NCBI GenBank assembly: GCA_945923775.1
Contig: CAMELR010000002.1
Location: 5,837 to 69,836, forward strand
Direction: 5' to 3'
Source: an uncultured Clostridia bacterium
GTDB lineage: Bacteria > Bacillota > Clostridia > Oscillospirales > Ruminococcaceae
Length of the DNA stretch: 64,000 nt
Shown: piece by piece, positions 45,306 through 54,611 of the stretch
Position numbering within the stretch: position 1 is the stretch's first letter
How the letters are laid out: the number at the start of each line of letters is the position of its first letter
Position numbers and translations under genes: made by a program
The notes under the pieces: model-generated
What the model saw: only the letters and a program-made list of their open reading frames with translations
Database searches by the model: none
What the model was told of the DNA's origin: nothing

Positions 45306-45428
45306 AAAATATATTATTATGGTCGTTCAGTATAAGCAATTATAATGTGGACGCTCAATAAGACAATAAATCGAGAATGTGTGCAGAAATGCGCTGTTCC
45401 GATCGAATAGCTATGGAGGTGAAAATAA

Positions 45429-45674
45429 ATGCCGAATATCAAGTCTGCAAAGAAGAGAGTTCTCATCGCCAAGGAGAGAACTGAGGCTAACAAGGCTTCC
45501 AAGACTGCACTTAAGACAGTTATCAAGAAGGCTCGTGCCGAGGGTGCTGACGCTGCTGTGATCAAGACCGCAGTTGTAAGCGTAGACAAGGCTGCAGGTA
45601 AGGGTCTTATCCACAAGAATAAGGCTGCTCGTCTGAAGTCCCAGCTTGCAAAGAAAGCAAACGCTACTGCATAA
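45429..45674 (+). CDS. rpsT: 30S ribosomal protein S20
   Basis: 81 aa. MPNIKSAKKRVLIAKERTEANKASKTALKT.. is a typical S20 N-terminus. GGAGGTG RBS. Confidence 0.95.
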   Translation: MPNIKSAKKRVLIAKERTEANKASKTALKTVIKKARAEGADAAVIKTAVVSVDKAAGKGLIHKNKAARLKSQLAKKANATA

Positions 45675-45696
45675 TTTCTTGAAGAAAGCAAACATA

Positions 45697-45731
45697 CACC
45701 CGCAGGCTGACAGCATGCGGGTGATTGTTTT
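45697..45731 (+). terminator. intrinsic terminator of rpsT
   Basis: CACCCGCA..TGCGGGTG followed by ATTGTTTT. Confidence 0.6.
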
Positions 45732-45787
45732 ATAGAAGCAAAAAATGGGTAAAAACGACATAAAATGCATAAGAGGGGGTAATTATA

Positions 45788-46288
45788 ATGACCGGCAAAA
45801 ACATAGAAATGACGGATCCCGCAGCGATAAACAAGCTGCTGAAGGAAGCAAAGGTATGCCGCATCGCGCTGATGAACGGCGAATATCCCTACATAATACC
45901 GATGTGCTTCGGCTACAAGCTTGAGGGTAATCACCTGGAGCTGTTCTTCCACACGTCTCCGAAGGGTCAGAAGATAGACCTGATAAAAAAGAACAACATC
46001 GCGGGATTCGAGATAGACCATCTCACCGATGTCGTCAAAGACGAAAACGACTGCGGAGTAACAGCGGTGTACGAGTGCGTAACCGGAACCGGCTCCATTG
46101 AGATCGTAAACGGAATCGAAAAGCTCACCGGGCTGACGTCCATCATCAGCAAATACGACGAGGAAAAAACCGAGCATAAGTTCAGCGAGCAGGCTTTAAA
46201 CAGCATGGTCGTGCTGAAGCTCACGGCAGAAACTTACTGCTGCCGCACGCACAGCGTCGCTGAAGAAAAGATAGACCTTCCGGTCTGA
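45788..46288 (+). CDS. pyridoxamine 5'-phosphate oxidase-family flavoprotein (NimA/COG3467-like)
   Basis: 166 aa. CRIALMNGEYPYIIPMCFGY..LELFFHTSPKGQKIDLI is the split-barrel FMN-binding pattern. Confidence 0.75.
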   Translation: MTGKNIEMTDPAAINKLLKEAKVCRIALMNGEYPYIIPMCFGYKLEGNHLELFFHTSPKGQKIDLIKKNNIAGFEIDHLTDVVKDENDCGVTAVYECVTGTGSIEIVNGIEKLTGLTSIISKYDEEKTEHKFSEQALNSMVVLKLTAETYCCRTHSVAEEKIDLPV

Positions 46289-48312: not shown

Positions 48313-49410
48313 TCATTTCAGACGCATGGGCAGAACGAGGTATGTAAACTCGTTACCGCTCATGGGGAGAATGATCAGCGGAGCGACAGAGGACGTCGCA
48401 ATGAGCTTAACCGTGTCGGTGTCGCACGCCTTGAAAGCATCGAGCATATATTTAGCGTTGAATCCCACAACAAGGGGCTGTCCGTTGTACTTAACAGGAA
48501 TGCTGTCGTTGACCTTGCCTATTGCAGTGGTGCAGCTCATACTGATGGTGTTATCCTTTATCTCGCAGCGGATAGGGTTCTTGTTCTTCTCATTGATGAT
48601 GAGCATAGCACGGTCAAGCATGTCGATCATCTCACGGCAGTTGACCTCAGCGTAAACCTCGTCTGAGCACTTGAGATAAGTCTTGAACGGAATGAAATCA
48701 CCGTCGAGCAGGCGTGATATCATAGTATAACCATCAACAATGAAGCTGATCTGATTCTTGTCTATGCAGATAGTAACATTTTTGTCGTTCTCATCAGATA
48801 GAATGTGAGTAAGTTCCTCCAGCGTCTTAGCAGGAACAATAAAGCTGATATTGTCATAAGCTACCGGCTCCTGACGAAGCGCGATCCTCACGCCGTCGAC
48901 AGCGGCAACGCTGAGTACGTTGTTCTCAAGCTCAAACTTGCAGCCCATAAGCGCAGGTTTGCTGTCGACAACAGCGACTGCAAACTTGGTCTGAATGATC
49001 ATGCTCTTGAGCAGCTTCTGCGGCATAGTAAAGCTTGTATCCGGGTTGACCTGCGGAACATTGGGATAGTCGTCGGCGCTGGAGCAGCTAACAGAGAACG
49101 AAGTCATGTTGTTAGTGATCTCAGCAAGGTTATTTCCGCTGCACTCGAAAGTAATGTTGCCGGAAGGCATTTTTCTTATAATATCAACAGCCATCTTTGC
49201 TGATATGACGATATTACCGCTTTCTATGCCCTCAACCTCGATGGAGGTCTTGATACCTATATCCAGATCGTAGCCGGTAACAGTAAGGGTATTTCCCTCG
49301 AGCTCCATCAGAATACCTTCAAGAGCCTGAATGTTGGATTTACCGGCAGCAGCCTTGGAAGTAGTCTGTACAACTGAGAGGATCGTGTCCTTGTTGCAAA
49401 TGAATTTCAT
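48313..49410 (-). CDS. dnaN: DNA polymerase III beta sliding clamp
   Basis: 365 aa. MKFICNKDTILSVVQTTSKAA.. with the three-domain clamp pattern. It lies immediately downstream of dnaA. Confidence 0.95.
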   Translation of the reverse strand: MKFICNKDTILSVVQTTSKAAAGKSNIQALEGILMELEGNTLTVTGYDLDIGIKTSIEVEGIESGNIVISAKMAVDIIRKMPSGNITFECSGNNLAEITNNMTSFSVSCSSADDYPNVPQVNPDTSFTMPQKLLKSMIIQTKFAVAVVDSKPALMGCKFELENNVLSVAAVDGVRIALRQEPVAYDNISFIVPAKTLEELTHILSDENDKNVTICIDKNQISFIVDGYTMISRLLDGDFIPFKTYLKCSDEVYAEVNCREMIDMLDRAMLIINEKNKNPIRCEIKDNTISMSCTTAIGKVNDSIPVKYNGQPLVVGFNAKYMLDAFKACDTDTVKLIATSSVAPLIILPMSGNEFTYLVLPMRLK

Positions 49411-49514
49411 ATTACGTATCCTTTCTTCTGAATCTGCCGCATTATCATGCAGTCGCTGGTTTTATCAGCCAGGGCTGCGAAGCAGCCGAAAACCGCGCAG
49501 CGGTTTTTTTCAAA

Positions 49515-49532
49515 GAATGAATTATATTATTT
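49515..49532. other. AT-rich candidate DNA unwinding element (DUE)
   Basis: GAATGAATTATATTATTT, 15/18 A/T, adjoining the trinucleotide array on the side distal to the boxes. Confidence 0.5.
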
Positions 49533-49553
49533 TAATAATAATAATAATAATAA
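49533..49553 (-). repeat. (TTA)7 perfect trinucleotide array; candidate DnaA-trio element
   Basis: The plus strand reads (TAA)7 and the dnaA-sense strand reads (TTA)7. It is separated from two tandem box-like motifs by GCCC. Confidence 0.65.
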
Positions 49554-49557
49554 GGGC

Positions 49558-49574
49558 TGTTAAAATGTTAAAAA
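49558..49574 (-). promoter_or_regulatory. two tandem DnaA-box-like motifs (TTTTTAACA, TTTTAACA) next to a GC cluster
   Basis: dnaA-sense strand reads TTTTTAACA-TTTTAACA-GCCC-(TTA)7. Confidence 0.55.
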
Positions 49575-49630
49575 CGCCGCCAGACGGTTTAAAAAGCTGA
49601 ACCGCAGGCGCAAAGTTTTTTAACTGCTCG

Positions 49631-49708
49631 CGTTGAAAACATGTGAAGATCAGAGGTTGAAAAAATCTTTCATCAAACCGTGGAAAAATTCTTAAAACCT
49701 GTTGAAAA
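49631..49708 (-). promoter_or_regulatory. DnaA-box cluster in the dnaA-dnaN spacer (oriC part II)
   Basis: dnaA-sense strand carries TTTTCAACA (49708-49700), TTTTCCACG (49687-49679), TTTTCAACC (49663-49655) and TTTTCAACG (49639-49631), all in one orientation. Confidence 0.65.
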
Positions 49709-49735
49709 TCAAGGTAAAAACTAATTTTTCTGCTC

Positions 49736-49778
49736 TCAAAAATAAAGGCAGTCTGCCGGTTGGCAAAGAGCCTTTATT
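49736..49778 (-). terminator. possible terminator/attenuator after dnaA
   Basis: Minus strand reads AAUAAAGGC..(20 nt)..GCCUUUAUU followed by UUUGAG. Confidence 0.45.
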
Positions 49779-49787
49779 CTGTGCTTA

Positions 49788-51155
49788 TCACTGATTAGCC
49801 TTGATATTCTTGATAAGATCCTCGATAACGGAGCGGAAATTGCTGTCCTTTGCCATCATTTCCTTTACGTTCTTGATAGCGTAAACGACGGTGGAGTGAT
49901 CGCGGCCGCTGAACTCCTGACCTATAGTTTCATAGGGAAGCCCGGTTATCTCCTGGATAACATAAATAGCGACCTTGCGGGCAGACGAAACCGGGGAATT
50001 CCGCTTGGGTGAGCGAATCTCATCGGGATCGACATTGTATATCTTAGCCGCCTCGCTGATGATCTTGTCAACAGTTATCGGGATCGGCTGGTGATCGGAA
50101 ACTATGTCCTTGATGACATTCTGAGCCACAACGATGGTGGGCTTTATCTGGGATACCATATAAAGAGCGTTCATCTTGGTGACAACGCCCTCGATCTGCC
50201 TGATGTTGGATTTCAGCTTTGTCGCGATGAAATCAACCACATCGTCGGGGATCTTGAAGTTGAGAAGATCCGCCTTGCGCTGAATGATCGCGAGACGTGT
50301 CTCGTACTCAGGGGCGCGGACGTCCGCCGCAAGTCCGGAGGAGAACCGTGTTTTCAGTCGGTCGGAAATGGACTTGATCTCTTTTGCGGGGCGGTCTGAT
50401 GTAAGTACTATCGCCTTGTTGAGCTTGTAGAGCTCGTTGAATATGTGGAAGAACTTTTCCTCGGTCTGCTCCTTGCCGGCGATGAACTGGATATCGTCTA
50501 TCAGCAGCGCGTCGGCGTTGCGGTATTTTTCGTCAAAAAGCTCAGTTTTGTTTGCGGTGATCGAGTGCAGGAACTCGTTGGTGAAAGTTTCCGCGGAGAT
50601 GTAGATTATATTGATACCGGGGTAGTTTTTAGTCATCTCGTTCTGGATAGCCGAAAGAAGATGGGTCTTTCCAAGCCCGGAATCGCCGTAGATAAACAGC
50701 GGATTGTATTTTTCGTGCTGTTTCTGGGATACCGCCTTTGCCGCCGCATATGCAAGGTTGTTCGACGGACCGACGATGAAGTTGTCGAAGGTATATGTTA
50801 CCTTGTTGTCATGTACGATATTGTCGATTTTGTTGGTAAGCTCACGGCTGTTGCGGATATCGTTGAATTTTGTCTCGGTTGTCGGGATATCGTCCTTGAT
50901 AATGATCTCGACCTTTATCGGATTGCCGAGAACGATGGTGAACTGTTCCTCAAGCTTCTCGAGATATATTGAGTTTATGGTATTGCGCTTGAAATCCGTG
51001 TCAGTCGCGAGGGTAACGACGTTTCCTTCCATGCTGATGGGTTCCAGGGCGTCGAGCCACAGTTCCTTTGCAGAGGCGGAAATATTATATTCGCGAACGT
51101 AGTTTTCAACCACAAGATTATAGATATCAGAGAGAGAGGAAATATTGTTTTTCAT
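49788..51155 (-). CDS. dnaA: chromosomal replication initiator DnaA
   Basis: ATG at 51155 (MKNNISSL..) gives 455 aa. AAA+ Walker A YGDSGLGKTHLL, box VII, and C-terminal DNA-binding domain (VAIYVIQEITGLPYETIGQEFSGRDHSTVVYA). The 41 upstream codons in the track ORF look non-coding. Confidence 0.95.
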   Translation of the reverse strand: MKNNISSLSDIYNLVVENYVREYNISASAKELWLDALEPISMEGNVVTLATDTDFKRNTINSIYLEKLEEQFTIVLGNPIKVEIIIKDDIPTTETKFNDIRNSRELTNKIDNIVHDNKVTYTFDNFIVGPSNNLAYAAAKAVSQKQHEKYNPLFIYGDSGLGKTHLLSAIQNEMTKNYPGINIIYISAETFTNEFLHSITANKTELFDEKYRNADALLIDDIQFIAGKEQTEEKFFHIFNELYKLNKAIVLTSDRPAKEIKSISDRLKTRFSSGLAADVRAPEYETRLAIIQRKADLLNFKIPDDVVDFIATKLKSNIRQIEGVVTKMNALYMVSQIKPTIVVAQNVIKDIVSDHQPIPITVDKIISEAAKIYNVDPDEIRSPKRNSPVSSARKVAIYVIQEITGLPYETIGQEFSGRDHSTVVYAIKNVKEMMAKDSNFRSVIEDLIKNIKANQ

Positions 51156-51399
51156 AACATTCACCATTCCATTAAGAAGATTGCAGGACGTATAAACTAA
51201 ACCAGATCCTATAAGCTGAAGCTGGTCTGCTGCGGTCAAAAACAGGTAATTATAATACTGTCTGTTTAAAACACGCACAATATATAGTTAGAAACTAAAA
51301 ATAATTTGTGTCAAAAGATGTCCATATTTAATAATACCATAAAAGTTGAAATTTTTCAAGCAAAAAAGCGCTTAATTTATTCGCGATAATATGTGAATT

Positions 51400-51660
51400 T
51401 TAAACAAACACATATAAAATAAGAAACGACGCAGCAGTTATCAACGCACCGGCGGCTCCGGAGATCAGCATTTTCAACGTTGTTGAGCGTTTCTGACGCT
51501 GAAGGTAGTCGGGGGCGCGGCGCGTTAAAAGTTCGACCTGACTGCGTATCTCATTTTTATCAGGTATATCACAGCCGCTGTTCAGGATCACAATTACTTT
51601 CTCAAAGCACGAGTTTTTGGGAATTATTTCGATTATGCTTTTAGTAACGCCCTTTATCAT
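51400..51660 (-). CDS. small hypothetical protein with C-terminal TM helix (86 aa)
   Basis: An ORF lying between the DnaA-box cluster and dnaA. C-terminal TM LISGAAGALITAASFLILYVFV. Weak RBS GAAAGG. No homology recognised. Confidence 0.45.
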   Translation of the reverse strand: MIKGVTKSIIEIIPKNSCFEKVIVILNSGCDIPDKNEIRSQVELLTRRAPDYLQRQKRSTTLKMLISGAAGALITAASFLILYVFV

Positions 51661-51689
51661 GAAGAACTACCGCCTTTCCAGTATAACAG

Positions 51690-52290
51690 AGTATTTCAAC
51701 CTGATTATTGACGTGACATATAAATTTATACATGTTTTTATGGAATTCTCAACAAAACGATGTTAACGTTATAAAAACAGCTGGTATAATCGGTTGATTT
51801 CTGAACGAAATGTTGAAAACTATGTTGAAACGGTTAAAAATTCGCAATATACAGCGGCGGTGCACTTGGTGGTATTCAACAGTCAAAAATGAGCGTTTTT
51901 ATTTTTTAAGTTTAAATCCTGTTAGTTAACCTATATTATACTTTCAGTATAGACCGGTGAGAAGAGAATCCTGCGTTTGATTTACAAATTATGTATTATT
52001 GTGTTGAAAACTTATCAACTCATCGATTTTAACAGGTTTTCAGAGGCATTTTTCAACGTTGAATCTATATTTTTGCCCAAACGCAGTTGAAAACTATGTT
52101 GAAACAGTTGAAAATCAGCATAAAACAGCCATATGTTGAAAAATGAAAAACCATTGAAAGTCTGGTTGAAAATCAGTTAATACCCGGTGTGAAAAAATAT
52201 TGTCAACAAATCGGAGTTGAATGTTGAAAAAGCGCAGAACAAACGATTTTGGGTTTTGAACAGAAAAAAGCCGCCCGGGTTGAAAAACCG
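51690..52290 (-). other. oriC part I: cluster of variant DnaA boxes upstream of dnaA
   Basis: Plus-strand TGTTGAAAA-type 9-mers (TTTTCAACA on the dnaA-sense strand) occur at 51811, 51823, 52002, 52085, 52097, 52106, 52134, 52164, 52222 and 52278. Inverted copies occur near 51694 and 52050. The region is AT-rich and non-coding. Confidence 0.7.
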
Positions 52291-52296
52291 GACGGC
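52263..52296 (-). terminator. intrinsic terminator of the HD-domain gene
   Basis: Minus strand reads GCCGUCCGG-UUUUUCAAC-CCGGGCGGC followed by UUUUUUCU. Confidence 0.75.
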
Positions 52297-52314
52297 AAAA
52301 TATTAAGCTGAATG

Positions 52315-52902
52315 TCAATCGTTCTGGGATTCCAGGAAGTAGGAAGCCTCCATATCTGCAACCGACAGAGCAAACGCCAGCGGGTACATTGCAAGCGCCT
52401 GACCTATCGTGTTCTTATCCTCGGCCCCGGAGAACCCCATGTGCCAGCGGATCGCCATTGCCTCCTCGCGGGTGAGGCGTATGTAGCCGCTGACCATGTA
52501 GACGGATTTCTCGCCGTGACCGTATGGGAGCGTATCGTGGATCTCGTAGCGGGGCTGCTTTTCCCATTGACCGGTCTGCTCGTTCTTGACGTTCCGCCAG
52601 CCGACGCGGTAGAAATTCACCTTGCATACGTCGTGAAGCAGCGCGACGATCGCAGCCGTTTCAGCGGAAACGCTCAAACCGTATTCGTTTTTCACGCGCT
52701 CGCGCTCAAGATAAGCCACAAGGCAGTGGTATACGTTCAGGGAATGCCGCAGAAGCCCGCCTTCAAATGCGTTATGATATCGCGTGCTGGCTGGCGCGGT
52801 GAAGAAATCGCTGCGGTTTTCGAGAAAGTCCAGCAGCTTATCTGAGCCTTCCCTGGTGATGTTTTCCTTGAAAATAGAAATAAATTCTTCCTTATCAGTC
52901 AT
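52315..52902 (-). CDS. HD-domain phosphohydrolase (YhaM-type HD module)
   Basis: 195 aa. YHNAFEGGLLRHSLNV..VALLHDVCK are HD-superfamily metal ligands. Confidence 0.75.
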   Translation of the reverse strand: MTDKEEFISIFKENITREGSDKLLDFLENRSDFFTAPASTRYHNAFEGGLLRHSLNVYHCLVAYLERERVKNEYGLSVSAETAAIVALLHDVCKVNFYRVGWRNVKNEQTGQWEKQPRYEIHDTLPYGHGEKSVYMVSGYIRLTREEAMAIRWHMGFSGAEDKNTIGQALAMYPLAFALSVADMEASYFLESQND

Positions 52903-52923
52903 TTGTCCCTCCGTATGTCAGGG

Positions 52924-53763
52924 TCAGTTGTATCCGGTGTAGCGGACGCGCTTGCGCGTGATGGTCAGCGCCTCCGGATCGAATGTGTATTCGTACTGCT
53001 TTACGGTGTACTCTCCGTATTCCTTCGCTACTATCCGCTGAATCATCAGACCTGCCGATTCCGGCTCAAGGTGGGTGCCGTAGGGCGCCACTTCCTCCCC
53101 GTTTTCGTATACCGCGACTTCCGTCAGCTTAGCGCCGGATACCGCGAAATACCTCGCATACTGCGGGACCTCCGCTTCGTTTATCATGTGGAAATCAAGC
53201 TGTATCAGGTCGGGATATTCCTCCGCGCTGAAGTCGCGCATGTTTGAGATAAGCTCACAGCCATAGGTGAGATCCTGGAGCACGCTTTCGAATATCAGAA
53301 ATCTGTCGTCCCGCGGGACGTTAATTTTCAGCGTGTCGATTATTTCGCCCTGTTTCAGCAGATCAAGCCGGAAATCCCCGTAGAGAGCGCCATTTATGTA
53401 GGTGGTCTCAAGCTCGGGGGCTTCGGTGGTCTCGCCGAGTTTAATGCAGGATATCTCGACGGTGTAGTAATCTCCCTCGGAATACACGTTCATTATAGAG
53501 TATGAAAGCCGGCTTCCCTCTATTCTGGGGGACTGCACGGCCGCCGGGATAACATCGTCCGGGGCAAGAGGCTCGGGCGGTGCGGTGGTAGTCTGCGGAG
53601 TGGTTTCCGTGACCGGAGCGGTGGTCTGGCTCGAAAAAGCAGTCGTAGAAACTGCATTATCAATGCTTCCCATGTTCTCAAGAGCGCAGCCGCAGGACGT
53701 CCCGGCTATCGCTGCCATCAATGCGGCGGCCGACAGGGATCTTGTAATTATATTTGCTTTCAC
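52924..53763 (-). CDS. hypothetical secreted/lipoprotein
   Basis: GTG at 53763 lies 7 nt after AAAGGAG. Signal sequence VKANIITRSLSAAALMAAIAGTSCGC. A Thr/Pro-rich linker is followed by a beta-rich domain. Confidence 0.55.
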   Translation of the reverse strand: MKANIITRSLSAAALMAAIAGTSCGCALENMGSIDNAVSTTAFSSQTTAPVTETTPQTTTAPPEPLAPDDVIPAAVQSPRIEGSRLSYSIMNVYSEGDYYTVEISCIKLGETTEAPELETTYINGALYGDFRLDLLKQGEIIDTLKINVPRDDRFLIFESVLQDLTYGCELISNMRDFSAEEYPDLIQLDFHMINEAEVPQYARYFAVSGAKLTEVAVYENGEEVAPYGTHLEPESAGLMIQRIVAKEYGEYTVKQYEYTFDPEALTITRKRVRYTGYN

Positions 53764-53879
53764 GGTAACACTCCTTTCCTTCTGCTGATATACATTATAT
53801 AAAAAAAACCGGAAAAAATCAAGGTGTTTTCTGAAACACTTTGTAAAACATACCTTTTCCAGAGATAAAATGCGGAACT

Positions 53880-54611
53880 TCATCGTATTACGGCGCTGAT
53901 CGCGGCTGCGATACAGTCCGCCCAGATAAGCGACTGCACGTCCTCGTCAGACGGCGCGGCAAGGAACCGCTGATGCGCCTGATCCCCTGTAATGCTGCTG
54001 AGAAGCGCGGCGGAGGGGACTCCGACTGCTATTACGGGGATCCCGGCGGAGCGTTCTGAAAGCTCCCTGCGCGGAGCCGCCGCCCCGGATCCCGGCGTGA
54101 TACCCGCGTCGGTGAGCTGAACAGTGCGGTACAGCCTCCCGGGGTCGTCGCAGCAGAGGGAATCCACGGCGATAATTGCACAGGCTCCCATTTCCCTGGC
54201 GGCGGAGCGGACCAGCGCAGCGGTTTCTATTCCGGTGTGCAGCGCAACGTCGGTTTCTATCGCGGCGAGGGAGTAGCGCTTTCCCGACTTCGCGGACAGC
54301 CGCCGGACGGTCAGCGCGCCGAGCCGGTCGCGGGTGATGTCGGGATTTCCAAGCCCGGCGGCGAGTATCCTGCCAGTCGGCGGCAGGAGCTGCTCGAGTG
54401 CGCGTTTCAGCAGCGCGGGGAGCGCGTTTCCGGCGGGGTCGCCCTCGAGTGTGATGTACCGCCCGGCGCGTCTCGACATAGTTCGCGCGGCGGAGTTCGA
54501 AAGCCGGATATCTGTTATCTTCACGCCGCCGATGGTGCGGCTCACGCGGCGCGTGCCGGGGGTTCCGGCGGGGATATGCGCGGATTCAACTGCGAGGTCG
54601 GAATGTTTCAT
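53880..54611 (-). CDS. gpr: GPR-family germination protease (short form)
   Basis: 243 aa. DLAVES, GGVKITDIRL, GRYITLEG, GLGNPDITRDRLG, TGIETAALV, IAVDSL, LTDAGITPGSG and GIPVIAVGVPS line up with B. subtilis Gpr blocks. It lacks the C-terminal ~100 aa of Bacillus Gpr. Confidence 0.7.
   Translation of the reverse strand: MKHSDLAVESAHIPAGTPGTRRVSRTIGGVKITDIRLSNSAARTMSRRAGRYITLEGDPAGNALPALLKRALEQLLPPTGRILAAGLGNPDITRDRLGALTVRRLSAKSGKRYSLAAIETDVALHTGIETAALVRSAAREMGACAIIAVDSLCCDDPGRLYRTVQLTDAGITPGSGAAAPRRELSERSAGIPVIAVGVPSAALLSSITGDQAHQRFLAAPSDEDVQSLIWADCIAAAISAVIR

Follow-up and report, generated by a model that had tools for sequence, protein, structure and literature searches.

Between dnaA and dnaN, the window (by which we mean the whole 64-kb stretch of DNA analysed here, 64,000 nt) carries a compact module that is very probably the basal unwinding system (BUS), as known from Bacillus subtilis oriC, at which an uncultured gut species of the Oscillospiraceae opens its chromosomal origin. 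The module is ordinary in design, with a lineage-specific DnaA box. Two of its features appear to be new: a clade-wide array made up of 3'-AAT-5' triplets throughout, paired with a charge-swapped base-reading pocket in DnaA, and a within-species polymorphism of triplet number with an apparent floor of five. The source species has been seen in pig and human samples, and a protein search that returned near-identical conspecific proteins revealed that it is widespread.

On the minus strand, positions 49574-49519 read TTTTTAACA-TTTTAACA-GCCC-(TTA)7-AAATAATATAATTC, followed by ATTCTTTGAAAAAAA and two GC-rich hairpins (Table 1). Reading of the sequence and Tandem Repeats Finder thus confirmed the order of two boxes, GCCC, (TTA)7 and AT-rich DNA between dnaA and dnaN that a sequence-only reading had proposed. 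Tandem Repeats Finder assigned the array a period of 3, 7.0 copies and 100% matches (49533-49553), and identified it as the sole period-3 array within the 64 kb. The exact (TTA)7 21-mer occurred once in the window and in none of 100 dinucleotide-preserving shuffles. A module scan required a box with at most 1 mismatch from TTTTCAACA, followed after 0-16 bp by five or more [C/T]TN triplets; it found exactly one site in the whole window and none in 30 Markov-1 random sequences. By nearest-neighbour energies, the weakest duplex in the 64 kb at each of three lengths (30, 40 and 60 bp) lay at 49513-49574, with the duplex at the module lying ~4.7 sd above the mean at 30 bp, so that easily melted AT-rich DNA is present past the triplets, as in a BUS. 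The complementary (+) strand reads 3'-(AAT)7-5', directed away from the boxes, as the BUS demands.

Table 1. Coordinates of the features of the putative origin region within the window
Feature	Position	Strand	Remarks
dnaN	48313-49410	-	TIGR00663, E 1.1e-78
dnaA-dnaN spacer	49411-49787	-	
Two GC-rich hairpins bordering the AT-rich tract	49473-49507	-	
Hairpin GGCTGC-TTC-GCAGCC	49473-49487	-	
Hairpin AAAACCGC-TGC-GCGGTTTT	49489-49507	-	
AT-rich tract AAATAATATAATTCATTCTTTGAAAAAAA	49504-49532	-	Probable rest of the unwinding element; low duplex stability
AAATAATATAATTC	49519-49532	-	Directly after the array
(TTA)7	49533-49553	-	DnaA-trio array, 3'-(AAT)7-5' on + strand; Tandem Repeats Finder
GC gap GCCC	49554-49557	-	Conserved in 71 aligned loci
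Second, abutting box TTTTAACA	49558-49565	-	8 bp; A shared with the first box, like B. subtilis box 7
Upstream proximal DnaA box TTTTTAACA	49566-49574	-	1 mismatch to lineage motif, 3 to TTATCCACA
Four distal lineage-type DnaA boxes	49631-49708	-	Orientation same as proximal pair
Distal box TTTTCAACG	49631-49639	-	
Distal box TTTTCAACC	49655-49663	-	
Distal box TTTTCCACG	49679-49687	-	
Distal box TTTTCAACA	49700-49708	-	
Terminator-like hairpin and T-run	49739-49781	-	Directly after dnaA stop; -22.3 kcal/mol, z -4.64, 0/200 shuffles as good
dnaA	49788-51167	-	TIGR00362, E 2.7e-135
Upstream DnaA-box cluster	51811-52286	-	9 exact TTTTCAAC plus further one-mismatch boxes

NCBIfam family matches gave the gene order dnaA-dnaN-yaaA-recF-(286-aa ORF)-gyrB on the minus strand. 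The longest dnaA ORF starts at GTG 51278 (496 aa) and overshoots the true start; because relatives align only from residue ~32-45 of this long ORF, the start is likely ATG 51167 (459 aa) or 51155 (455 aa), and the databases contain proteins of both lengths with the same sequence as the window DnaA. Its best solved relative is B. subtilis DnaA (8btg). Within the 64-kb window the cumulative G-C curve, a measure of local skew here, reached its minimum at 48319 with a flat bottom at 48-50 kb. The module lies ~1.2 kb from this local minimum and is dnaA-adjacent and at a local strand-composition switch, the location expected of a BUS. The 286-aa ORF between recF and gyrB (45317-46177, minus strand) had no NCBIfam match and contains, on the plus strand, a perfect copy of the canonical TTATCCACA box (45607-45615).

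The unwinding system of B. subtilis oriC reportedly had an earlier description by Richardson in 2016. The BUS comprises DnaA-box 6/7 of incC, a GC gap, the DnaA-trios and an AT-rich 27-mer (Richardson 2019; Pelliciari 2021, 2023). Published rules call for a box with at most 2 mismatches to the species-specific motif if known, or else to TTATCCACA; an optional second box, for which up to 4 mismatches are allowed; a spacer no longer than 16 bp (mode 12-13), of which ~4 bp form a gap; and at least three successive triplets 3'-NAN-5', with the consensus 3'-G/A-A-T-5' (Pelliciari 2021, PMC8287927). B. subtilis reads TTATCCACA-AATCCACA-GGCC-CTACTATTACTTCTACTA on the same strand (Pelliciari 2021, PMC8287927, table S2), or AATAGGTGT-TTAGGTGT-CCGG-GATGATAATGAAGATGAT from 3' to 5' (Pelliciari 2021, PMC8287927), with a spacer of 12; in the latter notation the window reads AAAAATTGT-AAAATTGT-CGGG-(AAT)7. 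Its spacer is also 12 bp (TTTTAACA plus GCCC), equal to that of B. subtilis, Listeria, S. aureus and C. botulinum, whose modules share this architecture (Pelliciari 2021, PMC8287927), and is 12 or 13 bp in related spacers; seven 3'-AAT-5' triplets follow on the plus strand. Order, strand and 12-bp spacing therefore equal those of the published BUS, and the proposed match to the B. subtilis architecture held. Shared features further include the location in the dnaA-dnaN spacer, a 9-bp box directly followed by one of 8 bp, the 4-bp GC gap, central-A triplets running 3' to 5' away from the boxes and then AT-rich DNA, together with further upstream boxes and a second cluster before dnaA. The window differs from B. 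subtilis in that its boxes follow TTTTCAACA and not TTATCCACA; its triplets are without exception 3'-AAT-5', which makes for a defective origin when built into B. subtilis; its repeat is pure and has alleles of differing length; and its DnaA carries D and K at the R202 and E228 positions. Because any (TTA)n fits the loose 3'-NAN-5' rule in two of three frames, the triplet match alone is weak, and the weight of the BUS call comes from position and conservation.

The sequence-only reading had called a perfectly homogeneous array unusual, a view that the published tables overturn: C. botulinum and D. geothermalis are each predicted to have (GAT)6, Bdellovibrio (GAT)5 and Rubrobacter xylanophilus (AAT)5 (Pelliciari 2021, PMC8287927, tables S1/S2). 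The arrays of C. botulinum, D. geothermalis and Rubrobacter follow a box pair and GC gap with a spacer of 12-13, as here, whereas that of Bdellovibrio follows a single box with a spacer of 3. The paper that lists these homogeneous arrays reported no within-species length variation for them, and our literature search found no paper joining 'DnaA-trio' with 'slippage' or 'microsatellite'. Among clostridial bipartite origins, C. difficile oriC2 likewise carries its triplets between dnaA and dnaN, immediately ahead of the unwinding element, to which P1 nuclease mapped the opening of the duplex (van Eijk and co-workers, PMC7561715); its array is mixed, (CTA)3 TTA (CTA)2 on the top strand and mostly 3'-GAT-5', whereas that of the window is a pure (TTA)7. 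The minus strand of the window may also carry a counterpart of the DnaD recognition element (DRE), which is defined by two or more 5'-TnnT-3' motifs on the strand facing the triplets in a DnaD-encoding genome (Winterhalter 2023, PMC10201434). The 5'-TnnT-3' motif is repeated throughout (TTA)7, an unbroken run opposite the triplets; C residues add to DnaD binding in the B. subtilis DRE, whereas (TTA)7 contains none.

Analysis of DnaA boxes pointed to a lineage-specific motif. The core TTTTCAAC occurred 20 times in the 64 kb against 2.2 expected, with 14 of the 20 occurrences within 49632-52286 and nearly all of these in one orientation. Matches to TTATCCACA with at most 1 mismatch numbered 18 in the window against 10.4 expected, none of them in either dnaA-adjoining spacer, and the canonical motif, being unenriched and without copies in these spacers, was dropped in favour of the lineage motif. 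The organism thus appears to use boxes of the TTTTCAACA type. Measured against TTTTCAACA, a motif derived in this analysis, the upstream proximal box TTTTTAACA has 1 mismatch and would lie within the published 2-mismatch limit, which it exceeds against the E. coli consensus TTATCCACA (3 mismatches); the second box, read as (A)TTTTAACA, has 2 mismatches to the lineage motif and 4 to TTATCCACA, within the limit of 4 for an optional tandem box. The earlier description 'textbook' fails for the boxes, which depart from TTATCCACA at 3 and 4 positions. Relatives carry TTTTCAACA or TTTTCCACA at the upstream proximal position (1-2 mismatches). Both proximal boxes have T at box position 5 in the source species, where relatives have C or G; TTTTCAACA-TTTGAACA of the relatives is TTTTTAACA-TTTTAACA here, an exact 8-bp tandem repeat common to all 20 conspecific contigs and L001. 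The cluster upstream of dnaA is the probable second half of a bipartite oriC, in which the module scan of the window found no triplet module, and the overall layout would be bipartite, like those of B. subtilis and C. difficile.

Conservation was assessed in a genome scan of 80 loci from Oscillospiraceae and Clostridia MAGs (DnaA identity 67-100%), in 76 of which the spacer could be delimited, giving 77 spacers with the window. The arrangement box-box-[C/A]GCCC-(TTA)n, placed 12 or 13 bp from the upstream box, was present in 76 of the 77 and never with fewer than five triplets, a conservation that supports the BUS reading; the remaining spacer (L078) has a divergent form. Across the 71 aligned loci, the GC gap was G 79%, C 89%, C 93% and C 90%, and the AAC core of the second box (positions -8 to -6) was kept in 87-100%. 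Triplets were counted in 76 parsed spacers (75 loci and the window, L078 being unparsed). On the top strand, triplet 1 was TTA in 74 and CTA in 2, and triplet 2 was TTA in all 76; triplet 3 was TTA in 62, TTG in 11, TGA in 2 and TGT in 1; triplet 4 was TTA in 51, TGA in 20, TCA in 2, and TTT, TTC and TTG in one each; and triplet 5 was TTA in 72, TAA in 2, TGA in 1 and AAA in 1. Triplets 1 and 2 are thus near-invariant in the clade, the middle base is changed in 25 cases, 23 times to C (top-strand TGA, TGT) and twice to G, and third-base changes (TTG, TTC, TTT) fall at triplets 3 and 4. In B. subtilis, proximal triplets matter most, the third base faces away from the protein, and a middle A or C, each with an amino group, is tolerated; the natural substitutions in the clade fit these rules. 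The same module, with CTA triplets, was found in nine outgroup lineages, in arrays such as (CTA)5 or CTA CTG CTA TTG CTA.

Past triplet 5, relatives carry unconserved A/T, which suggests that a five-triplet core is ancestral. Related species had 5 to 9 triplets, and neither alleles nor species had fewer than five; the perfect arrays of 6 triplets in seven loci, of 7 in the window and L007, and of 9 in L056 are expansions of that core. Within the source species, ten metagenome contigs with exact species-specific flanks carried 5 copies in eight cases and 6 in two, and ten further contigs with identical DnaA, some of Mb scale, gave the same division (5 copies in eight, 6 in two); L001 had 6 copies. 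Among gut-metagenome contigs from seven runs, a 6-base deletion at 49533 left five copies in X1-X5 and X12, five of these six runs being labelled pig gut, and a 3-base deletion left six copies in the X8 contig. In total, on identical flanks, 5 copies were present in ~22 conspecific contigs, 6 copies in 6 and 7 copies in the window only, a tally of assembled contigs, not raw reads, whose sources may overlap. Reads are longer than the repeat, which makes its collapse by the assembler unlikely. Slippage at such a pure trinucleotide array would add or drop whole triplets, and the alleles of 5, 6 and 7 bear out the earlier prediction that trio number might vary between strains through slippage. Five triplets look like a selected minimum, with extra copies (6, 7, 9) tolerated. 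The number of triplets (5, 6, 7) may also set how often different strains initiate, although this is a weaker possibility than the recoding of the DnaA pocket discussed below.

We found no link between weak boxes and extra triplets: L007 has 7 copies next to consensus boxes, and most conspecifics, whose weak boxes are the same as here, have 5. Elsewhere in the spacer, one X6 contig had a 90-base stretch over the distal DnaA boxes (49625-49716) replaced by unlike sequence, and the contig from run X5 carried a 17-base deletion at 49466, in the dnaN leader. The X6 and X12 contigs break at the repeat.

An alternative takes the tract for an unspecific AT-rich unwinding element or a microsatellite under no selection, with a periodicity that slippage produced and DnaA does not read. 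Such a tract would account for the least stable duplex of the window and for a length that varies freely from 5 to 9, and the 3'-NAN-5' rule is permissive enough to admit it. We nevertheless hold this reading to be very unlikely: in 76 of 77 spacers the array begins exactly 12-13 bp past the upstream box, its first two triplets hardly vary whereas the AT-rich DNA alongside is unconserved, no locus has fewer than five triplets, and outgroup arrays at the same position are non-repetitive (CTA CTG CTA TTG CTA), which indicates that periodicity is kept without slippage. A different proposal places unwinding in the upstream box cluster (51.3-52.3 kb) and leaves the dnaA-dnaN spacer to regulate or assist. 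More boxes lie there, and 51281-51341 and 51895-51955 are among the eight least stable windows; against it, the box-spacer-triplet module is absent from that region, and the bipartite origins of B. subtilis and C. difficile open on the downstream side of dnaA, beside their triplets. We regard this as the least probable of the readings weighed here.

It is more improbable than the microsatellite, and less so than upstream unwinding, that the element is mainly a DnaA-repressed dnaN promoter, with its -35 (TTAACA) in a DnaA box, its -10 (TATTAT) in the array and the resemblance to an origin secondary. A consensus scan matched TTAACA-16/17-TATTAT at 10 of 12 positions at 49571-49544 and 49563-49535, and dnaA has its own terminator-like hairpin, so that dnaN needs, and is probably transcribed from, a promoter of its own inside the origin spacer. 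However, chance yields -10-like hexamers in AT-rich DNA, the match is poorly conserved (spacing and -35 are worse in relatives with TTTGAACA and five copies), and a promoter would be compatible with a BUS, not exclusive of it. The BUS remains our preferred reading of the module. As for the GC-rich hairpins beyond the AT-rich tract, a hairpin 22-33 nt past triplet 5 is kept, with differing stems, in the nearest relatives (24/73 loci versus 6/73 for a control region). These hairpins could be an unwinding boundary or a dnaN leader structure; a role as terminator was rejected, since relatives lack a consistent T-run on either strand.

We then compared the base-reading pocket of the window DnaA with that of B. 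subtilis DnaA in an ungapped alignment with 8btg, using the numbering of the 496-aa ORF. Cryo-EM of the B. subtilis BUS revealed that the first base of the triplet, G, is bonded by Arg202 (O6) and Glu228 (N2), and the middle A by Asn187 and Glu183; R202A and E228A are lethal in B. subtilis, and initiation is poor from an engineered origin whose six triplets all start with 3'-AA-5'. The window DnaA keeps E183, N187, I193, K222 and E223 as E230, N234, I240, K269 and E270, and has L237 at the I190 position. The residues for the middle adenine and the single strand (E183, N187, I190, I193, K222) are thereby represented, and they are kept in nearly all 80 clade loci. The first-guanine residues are not: D249 and K275 replace R202 and E228, and the pair is D/K in 78 of the clade loci and N/K in 2. 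This replacement would mark a variant of the BUS, not its absence.

DnaA diversity was sampled with 50%-cluster representatives and two profile searches. Among the 150 nearest representatives, D/K was shared with the window only by the two nearest (P0121, P0122); the other pairs were R/E (100), H/E (21), K/E (17), Q/E (3) and R/A (3), with Q/A, V/E, S/Q and K/Q found once each. T. maritima and A. aeolicus DnaA are R/E. Outside the D/K clade 11 lineages were sampled. In the outgroup set of nine Oscillospirales loci, with H/E, K/E, R/E or Q/E pockets, the first triplet was 3'-GAT-5' in 9/9 and 37 of 45 triplets were G-first, compared with 2 of 380 in the D/K clade, where ~99.5% were A-first. L110, a separate lineage with a Q/A pocket and a DnaA ~42% identical to that of the window, has the module TTTTCAAC-TTTTCAACA-GCCC-TTA TTA TTA CTA TTA (2544-2759), its triplets sitting in an AT-rich spacer. 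Its DnaA was more similar to R/E and H/E proteins than to the window DnaA, and a crude NJ tree did not pair it with the D/K clade. L110 is a second case in which the R/E pair is lost together with A-first triplets. In L111 (403-2323), which has an S/Q pocket, dnaA is followed by ssb, not dnaN, and TTATCAACA-type boxes (seen as TGTTGATAA) lie upstream of dnaA; its origin layout therefore differs, and since ssb follows dnaA no comparable module could be read there.

Tentatively, the DnaA pocket of the clade may have switched its first-base preference from G to A through a paired charge swap, with the origin co-evolving to all-3'-AAT-5' triplets, a possibility that we rate below even chances. Asp249 could accept from adenine N6 and Lys275 could donate to N1 or N3; the swap of polarity would fit a change from G to A, because N6 calls for an acceptor where O6 calls for a donor. 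That the first triplet position hardly ever changes from T to C, when the middle and third positions vary, would argue for selection on that base. The coincidence of pocket and triplets is, however, one evolutionary transition, or at most two, the AT-rich spacer of L110 is a further caveat, and the charge swap could simply preserve a salt bridge. DnaA proteins of the R/E type occur elsewhere with many AAT triplets, in Aquifex and Oceanobacillus (Pelliciari 2021, PMC8287927), and strict covariation of pocket and triplets was rejected on the strength of Aquifex, which is R/E and mostly AAT in the published prediction.

The gene neighbourhood upstream of dnaA also differs in the clade. rnpA and rpmH are the usual upstream neighbours of dnaA in Firmicutes. 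A tblastn search found no match to them within 3 kb of dnaA in any of the 80 clade loci (0/80), whereas they were present near dnaA in seven of the nine outgroup loci (L101-L109), which points to a rearrangement of the origin neighbourhood in the same clade as the D/K pocket. In the window, the region upstream of dnaA (51280-54611) encodes a Peptidase_A25 (Gpr-like) protein and two ORFs, one of 279/319 aa and one of 195 aa with an HD domain. A further ORF, of 86 aa and hydrophobic at its C-terminus (51400-51660, minus strand), sits between dnaA and the upstream DnaA-box cluster. At least 29 of the 80 clade loci encode it in this location (37-94% identity), gene calls include it in all ten conspecific contigs, and it matched no Pfam or NCBIfam family.

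On the B. subtilis model, domain IV of DnaA would bind the tandem boxes TTTTTAACA and TTTTAACA, which would steer an ATP-DnaA oligomer over the GCCC gap onto the plus strand. Each pair of protomers would capture the first two bases of one 3'-AAT-5' triplet, and the duplex would be stretched and opened into the adjoining AT-rich tract, where the helicase would be loaded; the distal spacer boxes and the cluster upstream of dnaA would probably supply more DnaA. DnaA binding, the site of unwinding and the effect of copy number are all things that we infer from this model.

Identification of the module would bring gut Clostridia of a large, uncultured group, with their lineage-specific DnaA box, under the BUS model. 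Its length alleles may make natural populations a direct read-out of the triplet number that an origin needs or tolerates. The charge-swapped pair sits in exactly the clade that has A-first triplets, which provides a testable hypothesis of co-evolution; if true, it would represent a natural recoding of initiator-origin recognition.
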